Shown here piece by piece: positions 1,257-36,437 of a stretch of DNA of 64,000 nt (position 1 is its first letter; each line of letters begins with the position of its first letter). The translations under genes and the position numbers were made by a program. Under the pieces are notes generated by a model that was given only the letters and a program-made list of their open reading frames with translations, made no database searches and was not told the origin of the DNA. This DNA comes from Negaprion brevirostris (Eukaryota), in contig JARDVH010000084.1 of the NCBI GenBank assembly GCA_030324005.1, positions 39,846,585-39,910,584 on the forward strand, read 5' to 3'.

Positions 1257-1857
1257 TCAAAAGGATGGAGAGATTGCAGGAATAATAAGATAATGAAGCA
1301 AGGCAAAAGTTAGTTGGATGAGGGAGGAAAAGGAGAGGAAGAGGTGGATGAGACACAGAAAACAAGATGGATCTACAGGAGGTACAGGTTGGAATAGCAG
1401 AATCATTGCTTCCTGCTGCTGCTATCCAAAAAAAATGTGGTCAGAGATATTGATCTGAAATTGTTGAACTCAAATGTTAAGTCCCGAAGGTTGTAATGTG
1501 CCTAAATGAAAGGTGGAATGCTATTCCACCAGCTTATGCAGAGTTTTAGTGGAGAAGTATAGGAAGCCAAGGACAGCAAGGTAGAGAATTAAAATGATGA
1601 CCAACAGGCAGCTTAGGGTCACATTTGCAGACTGCAAAGTAATCATTCAACCTCTGGTTTCCACAGTGCACAGAAGGGTGCATTGTGAACAGCAAATGTA
1701 GCATACCACATTGAAAAAAGCAAGTGCATCACCATTCCACTTGGAAGGAGTTCTGGATCCTATTTAGTATGCTGTGGCATTGCTGGTGTTGGACTGGGGT
1801 AGGCACAGAAAGACGTCTCACAACACCAAGTTAAAGTCCAACAGGTTTATTTGGTAA

Positions 1858-1892
1858 CACAAGCTTTCAAAGCACTGCTCCTTCATCAGGTG
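1858..1892 (-). ncRNA. Minimal type I hammerhead ribozyme motif (Penelope type)
   Basis: Minus strand: CAC-CTGATGA-A-GGAGC-AGT-GCTTT-GAA-AGCT-T-GTG. This has an intact core, stem II with G-U pairs, palindromic stem III (AGCT) and a 3-bp stem I. Confidence 0.7.
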
Positions 1893-2113
1893 AGCGGGAG
1901 TTAGGTTCACAAACAGGGCATTTTTGATACACATGCAATGCCTTGTCCTGCCTTAGACAATTCATGCCTCTTTAATCTGTGCTTAACCCTCTTTCCACTT
2001 GCATTGTCTTCACCTGTAAAGACCTGATTACCTGTTAAGACTCGCATTCCAACCATTACCTGGTAATTGAGTCTGTGTCCGTATATGCCCTGTTTGTGAA
2101 TCCAACTCCCACT

Positions 2114-2148
2114 CATCTGATGAAGAGGCAGCGCTCCGAAAGCTCGTG
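2114..2148 (+). ncRNA. Minimal type I hammerhead ribozyme motif (Penelope type)
   Basis: CAT-CTGATGA-A-GAGGC-AGC-GCTCC-GAA-AGCT-C-GTG. The core is intact and stem II has one mismatch. Confidence 0.65.
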
Positions 2149-2307
2149 CTACCAAATAAACCTGTTGGACTTTAACCAGGTGTTGTGAGACTTCCTGATG
2201 AGTGAANNNNNNNNNNNNNNNNNNNNNNNNNNNNNNNNNNNNNNNNNNNNNNNNNNNNNNNNNNNNNNNNNNNNNNNNNNNNNNNNNNNNNNNNNNNNNN
2301 NNNNNNG

Positions 2308-8191: not shown

Positions 8192-9274
8192 TCCCTCAGT
8201 GCACATGCTCAGGACTAACACCTATGTTTATTTGGTTGAAATGAGTAGCCTTGAGGTGAAGGTCTCTTCATGAACTCATTATGGATGCTGACCATCCCTC
8301 AAAATAAATATTATTTACACTTTGGAGTGAGGTGATGGAAGGATAGCTGCATGTCTGACATTGGCTTCAATCCTGTCATGCAAAAACTCTTTAAGGAGCC
8401 AAAGTAGAATGGAGGTAACTGTCATTGATCTAGGGGTTATTCAACTTCCACTATAAATACACTGGTTGAGCTTGTTTGCAATGTCAGCATCAGTCATCTC
8501 ATTATTCCCCCTTCTTGTGTCACAACCTTTCACTAACTTCCAGGAGTTAAGCTTGGATTATTGCCACATAAAATGCGTGATATTCTTATTCACTAACCTG
8601 AAAATACCTAGCCAATGTGATCAGTTACAGGTATCCTGTGACAACATTGCCTTAGGAGGTAATTATGAAATGCTCCACAGCTTTGCATATGCTCTCCCTC
8701 TGTTGGGTATGTACTGACCTGCACTAATCCATTGCCAATAAACCGCAAGATGCAAAACACTGGAGATCCTCAGGGTGTAAAACCAGATACCGTCCCCTGT
8801 CTGACATTGAGGATTAAAGTTATTCTAGGCATGGAAACAATATGGTTCAGTAGAAGGAAACTGTTACTACCCTCAAGCAGTCTTTGCCCTGTAGCATAAC
8901 AATACTTGCTTCAATGCACTGTATCCGCAAAATTAGCGGCAACAGGGTTTGCACATGAAAAAAAACTACTTAAACAATTCTCCATTCCGAACACAAAGTT
9001 CTTTGCAATTCTAAACCTCTCAGTGATCTGCAGTGAGAGAGAAAATGATCAAACCACCACCAGAGGCAGTGTTGAAACCATGTAATCCATACAGCTGCAC
9101 AAAGCCCAAAGTGAGGCCAACAACAGGACATCTGGATTTGACACACTGTGGATTTGACACACTTTTAAATTGGTAGTATTTAATATAAATGTCGAGTAAA
9201 ATGTAAGTGGCCCAAAACCAAGCCTTTGCACAAACACCTGCGATAACTCCCCTGTTCTTCAAAATCATAGAATG

Positions 9275-9415
9275 AAGTCTCACAACACCAGGTTAAAGTC
9301 CAACAGGTTTATTTGGCAGCACTAGTTTTCGGAGCCTCAAGCTCCTTCATCAGGTCAGTGAGGACTTGTGTTCACAAACAGGGCACATAAAGACAAAATC
9401 AATTTATAAGATAAC
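9275..9415 (-). mobile_element. Penelope terminal-repeat fragment with mutated hammerhead (9320-9356)
   Basis: Near-identical to 1812-1925. Minus strand reads GAC-CTGATGA-A-GGAGC-TTGAG-GCTCC-GAA-AACT-A-GTG. Confidence 0.8.
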
Positions 9416-9499
9416 GGCATCTCTGCATCATGGCTTCAAAATCATGCCATAGGAACTTTTACGTCCATCTGAAAGGGCAAGACTTTGATTTAGTGTCTC

Positions 9500-35170: not shown

Positions 35171-35310
35171 TCATGATTTGGAGATGCCGGCGTTGGACTG
35201 GAGTAAACACTGTAAGAAGTCTCACAACTCCAACAAGTTTATTTGATAGTAAACCCACAAGCTTTTGGGGTTTGCCCCTTTGTCAGGTGAGTGGAGAGTT
35301 CTGGTCTCTG
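35171..35310 (-). mobile_element. Penelope terminal fragment with 12-bp TSD and dead hammerhead
   Basis: Same family as 1780-1900. Flanked by GTCACTGGCTAG at 35159-35170 and 35311-35322. Hammerhead core decayed to CTGACAA..AAA (35256-35289). Confidence 0.75.
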
Positions 35311-35387: not shown

Positions 35388-36437
35388 ACATAGAAACACA
35401 CGTAGAAAATAGAAAATAGAAGCAGGACTAGGCCATTCAGCCCTTTGTGTTTCCTCCGCCGTTCATTGTGATCATGGCTGATCAACACATTCAGGACCCT
35501 GATCCTGCCTTCCCCGTATGCCTTGAGCCACAACAGCTATGTCTAATTCCTTCTTGAAGTCGCACAATGTTCTTGGTCTCAACTGTGTCAGTGAATTCCA
35601 CAGATTCACTGCTCTCTGGGTGAAGAAATTTCTTCCACCTTAGTCCTAAAAGATTTATCTCTTATCTTCAAACTATGACCTCCAATTCTGGACTCCTCCA
35701 CCATCGGGAACTTTCTGGCTCTGAATCTACCCTACTTAATCCTGTTCAAATTTTATAAGTTTCTATGAGATTCCCTTTCACTGTTCTAAACTCCAATGAA
35801 TATAATCCTAACCAACTTAATCTTGTCCTCATATGACAGTCCTGTCATTCCAGGAATCAGCCCGGTGAACCTTTGCTGCACTCCCTCTATGGCAAGAACA
35901 TCCTTCCACAAATAAGGACACCAAAACTGCACATAATGCTCCAGATGTGGTCTCACTAACATCCTATGCAATTGCAGCAAAACATCTCTATTCCTATACT
36001 CAAATCCTCTCACTACGAAGGCCAACATACCATTTGCCTTCTTTACTGCCTGCTGTACCTGCATTCTTCAGCATGAGGACACTAAGGTCTTGCTGAGTAA
36101 CCTCCTCTCTCAATTTACACCCACTCAAATAATAATCTGCATTCCTTTTTGTGCTACCAAAGTGGATAATTTCACACTTATCCACATTGTACAACATCTG
36201 CCATACATATCCCCACTCACTCAGCCTGTCCAAATCATACTGAAGCATCTTTGCATCCTCCTCACAGCTCACTTTCCCACCCAATTTTGTATCATTCGCA
36301 AATTTGGAGATAATACATTTAGATCCCTCATCCAAGTCATTAATATATAATGTGAACAGTTGGGGTCCTAGCACATATCCCTGCAGTACCCCACAAGCCT
36401 GTCATTCGAAAAAAGGCGCATTTATTCAAACTCTTTG
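35388..36437 (-). mobile_element. CR1 LINE, ~1 kb RT-containing copy
   Basis: 'LGPQLFTLYINDLDEG..ISKFANDTKLGG' and 'QVQQAVKKANGMLAF..LVRPHLEHYVQFWCPY'. Flanked by CTTCCTGAACT at 35377-35387 and 36438-36448. Confidence 0.92.

Follow-up and report, generated by a model that had tools for sequence, protein, structure and literature searches.

Two damaged hammerhead ribozymes on opposite strands mark a probable head-to-head insertion scar of a Penelope-like element in Negaprion brevirostris

Two minimal hammerhead ribozyme motifs lie on opposite strands, inside the arms of an inverted repeat, near the start of the window analysed here, a 64,000-nucleotide stretch of the Negaprion brevirostris genome (contig JARDVH010000084.1, positions 39,846,585 to 39,910,584 of the forward strand). 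The question raised by this arrangement is whether it represents a mobile unit, a functional RNA element of the host or the remnant of an insertion. The original prediction described a fold-back Penelope mini-element and suggested that it was either a retrozyme-like non-autonomous unit or a cis-acting cleavage element within a host pre-mRNA.

Both hammerhead cores exist, as do the inverted arms, and all lie where they were predicted. Descriptor and family comparison identify each motif as a minimal type I hammerhead remnant with an intact core, one on the plus strand at 2114-2148 with C17 at 2145, the other on the minus strand at 1858-1892 with U17 at 1861. The plus motif consists of stem I CAU/GUG, CUGAUGA, an extra A, stem II GAGGC-AGC-GCUCC, GAA and AGCU, and the minus motif (1892-1858) of stem I CAC/GUG, CUGAUGA, A, GGAGC-AGU-GCUUU, GAA and AGCU. 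The CUGANGA and GAAA core, U16.1, H17, the extra base before stem II and the stem III palindrome are found in both window copies and in the family majority (75 copies), all of which fit the proposed minimal type I hammerhead with its AGCU palindrome. A 28-nt core motif written for this analysis matched the 64 kb with three or fewer mismatches at these two sites and nowhere else (expected 0.00, 100 shuffles). The assignment is based on the descriptor, the family comparison and the literature; an Rfam scan at E <= 10 gave no hammerhead family and returned chance or spurious matches only, such as RFPL3-AS1_2 below the cut-off. Folded singly, the motifs did not adopt a hammerhead fold (z-scores -0.3 to +1.6), and this is not counted as evidence because dimer-dependent motifs are expected to fail alone.

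The cores had been called complete, which is correct for their letters but not for their stems. In the plus copy, 10.2-11.2 of stem II is an A-C mismatch and U-G closes stem I (pairing code WWw for stem I, WxwWW for stem II), and in the minus copy C-to-T decay has left G-U at the conserved 10.1-11.1 and at 10.2-11.2 of stem II (stem I WWW, stem II wwWWW). An intact stem II with G10.1-C11.1 is thus absent from both. Stem II energies are +1.1 kcal/mol (plus) and -1.4 kcal/mol (minus), and the dimer hammerhead fold is computed at +1.5 and -4.7 kcal/mol respectively, compared with -15.3 to -15.9 kcal/mol for three all-Watson-Crick family copies. Every core letter is kept in both window copies, a feature on which the locus was selected in the first place; 39 of 75 fixed-register copies do the same, and 10 of the 75 are fully intact. 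Core position G12 lies within a CpG and is altered in 86 of 259 copies, and it follows that inserted copies decay freely. Variation in the non-CpG core columns (4.3%) is slightly lower than in the 3' flank (6.9%), which may reflect ascertainment or selection on master copies. From the pattern of base changes, the stem damage in both window copies reads as neutral and partly of the CpG type.

The family majority is a textbook minimal hammerhead that retains both the core and the pairing of stem II. Stem II is without mismatch in 117 of 208 family motifs, and its pairs covary: 10.3-11.3 is A-U in 103, G-U in 79 and G-C in 10 motifs, and 10.4-11.4 is G-C in 178 and A-U in 3, these being counts of copies rather than events, taken without a shuffle control. 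In both subfamilies, position 10.3 (window 2127 on the plus strand, 1879 on the minus strand) can be A or G, keeping A-U or G-U, and shows no linkage to other markers (r2 about 0-0.1); RNA editing, hairpin-templated change and many masters are candidate causes of this variation. A sister subfamily (L075, L076, L088, L139, L163, L032 and others, about 30 of 208 motifs) has a stem III of 3 bp with a 5-nt loop and could for this reason fold as a monomer hammerhead.

The inverted arms, 1812-1921 and 2085-2194, are 110 nt each, 87% complementary and separated by 163 nt, and the 441-nt region folds with an energy of -208 kcal/mol (z = -14 against 100 shuffles). The predicted extent of 1815-2191 describes the arms well but not the size of the element. 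By family alignment, the left arm (1769-1921, minus strand) is an inverted 5'-truncated 3' pseudo-LTR (pLTR) of a Penelope-like element (PLE). It is 82-87% identical to family copies from about 1763-1770 to 1921 and equivalent to positions 1503-1644 of L020, a real copy that serves as the reference. It reaches to about 1769 by way of the optional PLE tail, about 40 nt found in the left arm only (1769-1811, minus strand, from the downstream alignment of family copies), a feature described in PMC8557442, PMC3846280 and PMC11167929. A 22-nt filler at 1922-1943, which junction comparison indicates to be specific to this insertion, connects it to the right arm (1944-2194, plus strand), aligned to the family as a tail-less 5'-truncated PLE 3' end (pLTR) with 87-89% identity over 250 nt. 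The apparent spacer at 1944-2084 is the upstream pLTR of the plus copy, because family copies align across 1944-2194. A fixed 5' boundary at 1944 was ruled out, as relatives run on upstream into an ORF.

The region just 5' of the plus ribozyme (2078-2114, plus strand) shows, by family comparison, a damaged TATA-like box and an initiator-like CCACTCA; the window has CG at 2080-2081, where the family majority has TA. Together these would form a putative promoter, and the same layout of TATA and TCACT has been described in rotifer pLTRs (PMC3846280). Beyond the right arm, 12 nt (2195-2206) precede a gap of 100 N (2207-2306). These 12 nt resemble a reversed pLTR piece, so that a third fragment may extend from here into the gap. 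Because the gap begins 12 nt past the right arm, it hides the outer right boundary and any target-site duplication, and the best duplication candidate is an 8-mer at chance level. The sequence after the gap (2307-2570) is a high-copy repeat with 22 matches in a 1.2 Mb sample of the genome, presumably the 3' end of a CR1-type LINE. Further solo pLTR fragments occur in the window at 9263-9417 and 35181-35300, both on the minus strand; they belong to related subfamilies and each carries a hammerhead remnant.

The relatives of the right arm identify the parent. First-look searches of the same genome returned 12,752 candidates for the region (40 scored) and 9,296 reverse transcriptase (RT) candidates. 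Upstream of the position equivalent to 1944, the fetched flanks show relatives extending by as much as 1.36 kb into a decayed ORF. In a set of 12 loci that were widened to 10 kb, the longest shared stretch is 2.6 kb (L186 and L187). This ORF, broken by stops and frameshifts, encodes an RT (RVT_1, E 6.9e-8, above the cut-off) followed by a C-terminal GIY-YIG domain (E 0.003, below the cut-off) and is contiguous with this pLTR. It contains the DKG motif (DKGG in the L193 frame), two cysteines within GIY-YIG (YLIRCRKGCPEAWYIG-type motif in L030, L023 and L194) and, between RT and endonuclease, a CX2-5CxxC linker (CHSNLCKTC or CHSNLCRMC in L020, L021 and L027, CX5CxxC) common to Neptune and Nematis (PMC8557442). 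Penelope-like origin had been predicted, and these relatives bear it out; by the criteria of PMC8557442, the sequence motifs make the parent an EN+ PLE of apparent Neptune or Nematis type. In the 12 widened loci, no full-length, intact copy flanked by two direct pLTRs was found, and no upstream direct pLTR.

To place the locus within its family, 120 stretches of 10 kb were taken at round coordinates on large scaffolds, with small contigs left out (L054-L093, L124-L183 and L287-L306; 1.2 Mb, 1.0 Mb without N). A profile search of this sample detected 88 family pieces, 50 of them in 25 head-to-head pairs, along with four same-strand neighbours and no tail-to-tail pair. The picture was similar when the first 100 stretches were searched by BLAST, with 80 pieces whose neighbours were 23 head-to-head, 1 convergent and 2 same-strand. 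Extrapolation from the 25 events in 1.2 Mb puts the number of such inverted-arm copies in the genome at ~56,000 head-to-head pairs. Both ribozymes are whole in 4 of the 25 pairs, equivalent to ~9,000 two-ribozyme pairs with several-fold uncertainty. An assembly gap lies within 150 nt of the 5' side of 12 of 34 unpaired pieces, so the fold-back frequency is probably underestimated.

If the locus were a non-autonomous fold-back unit, retrozyme-like or MITE-like and copied whole by the enzymes of its parent, its junction should recur. Two loci, L002 and L003, match the window unit over ~380 nt at 81% and are similar to it in overall length, and mobilisation in trans is possible for pLTR sequences (PMC3846280). 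Their junctions, however, are not those of the window: in reference positions they lie at 1492/1375 with a gap of 13 (L002) and 1342/1505 with an overlap of 1 (L003), against 1503/1361 with a gap of 22 in the window. A search with 80 nt around the junction gave three candidates, a lower bound since the search skips very common words, which were the locus itself and two loci matching the left arm only; no second copy of the junction was among them. Across the family the junctions differ in 86 of 86 pairs (all loci minus self, duplicates and junctions with N, the search-derived loci being biased by the queries). Retrozymes, moreover, are defined as head-to-tail tandems (PMC7229834; bioRxiv 10.64898/2026.07.22.740005) and this unit is head-to-head. 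The mobile-unit reading put forward in the original prediction is therefore largely refuted already and retains a negligible probability. Since the junctions are all different, the fold-back is formed when the element inserts rather than moving as a unit, and the sequences indicate that these fold-backs are made anew each time from one template lineage.

The pairs also share features of detail. Of the 50 pairs in which both 3' ends are present, 40 have exactly one tail (9 have none and 1 has two), and in the unbiased sample this holds for 13 of 17 (none in 1, two in 3). Filler of 11-40 nt occurs in 30 of 86 pairs. Both arms are of the same subfamily in 24 of 26 classifiable pairs, the two subfamilies being about equally common. 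The idea that the arms come from different templates arose when one stem II site was concordant in 6 of 13 pairs, and was dropped when this became 23 of 30 with more pairs and the subfamilies agreed in 24 of 26. An origin of tail-bearing arms solely from the 5' pLTR was likewise ruled out, many such arms being long. The arms do not overlap or simply abut in 19 of 86 pairs (for example L225, L023, L121, L024 and L116, with L225 at reference 1017/1018). Non-overlapping or abutting inverted arms are a known signature of LINE-1 twin-priming inversions.

These regularities bear on whether the two arms could have arrived separately, as two independent adjacent insertions, or the left arm have formed later as a local inverted duplication of the right. 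Taken by itself, the locus gives some room for this. The arms are no closer to each other (87% identity) than either arm is to further members of the family (up to 93-95%), they have no non-majority letter and hence no derived letter in common, and the subfamilies are discordant in 2 of 26 pairs. The right arm, which departs from the column majority at 16 positions (31 copies), can be typed as subfamily 'B' (7 of 8 diagnostic sites), and the left arm, whose sites are split one against one, has too little sequence for typing. Independent landing, however, cannot yield 25 head-to-head and no tail-to-tail pairs, the single tail found in 40 of 50 pairs matches the tail asymmetry of this locus, and the left arm is not a copy of the right because it has a tail and the right arm has none. 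We therefore regard separate arrival or local duplication as improbable. The one-event origin preferred here is drawn from the family pattern rather than from this locus itself, because the short left arm cannot be typed and the arms have no derived letter in common.

What the ribozymes could do in a transcript was examined by folding. The original prediction that a transcript of either strand carries one ribozyme together with its own antisense copy, which would silence it, agrees with the computation. In either direction the antisense arm is transcribed before the ribozyme and there is a single sense ribozyme per transcript. In a read-through transcript the core is computed to be paired with a probability > 0.99, and within the whole transcript the middle pair of stem II has a probability of 6e-11 on the plus strand and 3e-15 on the minus strand. 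Both hammerheads are accordingly predicted by the folding model to be silent, the read-through RNA forming a duplex of ~110 bp that buries the core. Intact minimal hammerheads cleave poorly and only as dimers (PMC4209133), in line with the dimer result of Lünse et al. 2016 as given in PMC6765202, and the anole PLE motif needs the protein of its element for cleavage (PMC11167929). No intramolecular dimer can form, because there is one sense copy per transcript. This, with the antisense arm made first both ways, speaks against the predicted switching-on by dimerisation.

The same observations weigh on the proposal that the host has co-opted the element as a cis-acting switch for cleavage of a pre-mRNA, which fold-back would turn off and dimerisation or a protein would turn on. 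The core letters are intact in both arms, and the insertion is old: in two other organisms, contigs lead from the unique left flank on into the tail and show 10-11 differences across 390-510 nt, which places at least the left arm before those splits. Known cases lend the idea plausibility, as the anole PLE ribozyme is protein-assisted (PMC11167929) and PLE-like hammerheads have been retained in amniote genes (PMC7229834). Both stems are damaged here, however, the antisense arm comes first both ways and each transcript has one sense copy, and with ~9,000 similar two-ribozyme pairs expected the locus is not special. Nor was a host protein detected with Pfam in the 23 frames scanned of the 96 stop-free frames of >= 90 aa in the 64-kb window, a scan that would miss short exons. 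Its sole match was an RT fragment at 36000-36398 on the minus strand (RVT_1, E 1.5e-5), probably a LINE remnant. Among the sequencing runs listed as containing the stretch, none is recorded as RNA. A host switch is thus very improbable.

We conclude that the locus is very probably an old 5'-truncated insertion of an abundant PLE, apparently of Neptune or Nematis type, with two 3' ends joined head-to-head, likely in one event. Both of its hammerheads carry damage and are expected from the folding to be silent. In such an event, the RT-endonuclease would nick both strands of the target and prime reverse transcription at each, once at the end of the tail and once at its base, that is at two RT start sites bracketing the tail. 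Both cDNAs would end early and their ends be joined, here with 22 nt of filler. The 3' ends of family copies in this genome form two peaks, at about 1615-1625 and 1645-1650 of the reference, which fit the two RT start sites observed in vitro for anole Poseidon, an element that cuts and extends both strands (PMC11167929). Self-priming on an antisense template is preferred in PMC3846280, and the present data would be compatible with either two-nick priming or self-priming, without separating them. The ribozyme would have served the tandem transcripts of the parent, in which two sense copies could pair through AGCU, and would be a passenger in the present scar.

The 5' ends of short copies give a further view of the templates. 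In the 120 stretches, 20 of 56 such ends fall within reference 1516-1535 and 5 lie further upstream, although some of the 56 may be alignment limits in a divergent subfamily. This step corresponds to about 2100-2116 of the window, just upstream of the hammerhead, ~25-30 nt past the TATA-like box and at CCACTCA, and both arms of the window unit reach upstream of it. The step may mark the transcript start, in which case it would fit run-off from templates that stay uncut, and so agree with the anole data. Drosophila Penelope also has a start site in its pLTR (PMC2377424), which backs this idea in part only because its promoter is TATA-less. No peak of 5' ends is seen at the hammerhead cut site, the profile bins around it holding 5, 5 and 6 ends. 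A footprint of hammerhead cutting was considered and rejected; the cluster of BLAST starts that had pointed to it came partly from the sister subfamily, with its longer stem III, and from gaps, and the profile shows no peak. A more speculative account, to which we assign only a small chance, is that the scars record a dimeric RT-endonuclease carrying two AGCU-paired element RNAs, which would prime each nicked strand at the starts bracketing the tail and join the cDNA ends. Most short arms would then be run-off at the transcript start, and the hammerhead would act by pairing uncut template RNAs, not by generating their ends.

As an ordinary decayed head-to-head Penelope scar, the locus has little weight by itself. 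It does carry a caution for ribozyme scans, as paired opposite-strand hammerheads in such genomes should by default be taken as scars of PLE insertion. The population of scars is of wider use, since its orientation bias, one-sided tails and 5'-end positions offer cheap genomic tests of PLE integration and of template cutting by the ribozyme.

The pattern of opposite-strand hammerhead pairs is already known, having been published since 2013-2014. Inverted truncated PLE copies and a one-sided tail are described in PMC8557442, PMC3846280 and PMC2377424, and cleavage of both strands with two RT start sites in PMC11167929. A literature search that lacked most subscription papers and supplements gave no paper by title on the present Penelope family or on two-RNA priming in PLEs, and the tables of PMC4209133 may list the family. 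That paper (Cervera and De la Peña 2014) reports dual minimal hammerheads ~100-700 bp apart on opposite strands, probably tied to truncated PLEs. The window motifs, about 220 nt apart, are alike in their strands and in the link to truncated PLEs, but the example in the accessible text is from Schistosoma, with no shark-type family or junction census, and the window copies depart from the intact consensus. Non-LTR retrozymes (PMC7229834; bioRxiv 10.64898/2026.07.22.740005) resemble the window unit in being short, non-coding and pLTR-related with a type I hammerhead, but as described there they are head-to-tail with two sense ribozymes per transcript, whereas the window unit is head-to-head, has one and is unrepeated. 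The Poseidon element of Anolis, PAc, studied in vitro (Frangieh et al. 2024, PMC11167929), has two RT start sites bracketing the tail that match the 3'-end peaks found here; it belongs to another clade, and the available part of that paper contains no test of inverted-arm formation. The parent ORF is like those of Neptune- and Nematis-type EN+ PLEs, with DKG, the CX2-5CxxC linker and GIY-YIG with two cysteines between its motifs. A further likeness is to the complex insertions of EN+ PLEs (Craig et al. 2021, PMC8557442; Arkhipova et al. 2013, PMC3846280), which are head-to-head, with an inverted truncated pLTR at the 5' end, a tail of 30-40 nt at one end and variable arms. The window unit has the same make-up, an inverted 5'-truncated copy placed head-to-head with a tail at one end, and differs from the published insertions in having no ORF and in a 22-nt filler that replaces the overlap palindrome.
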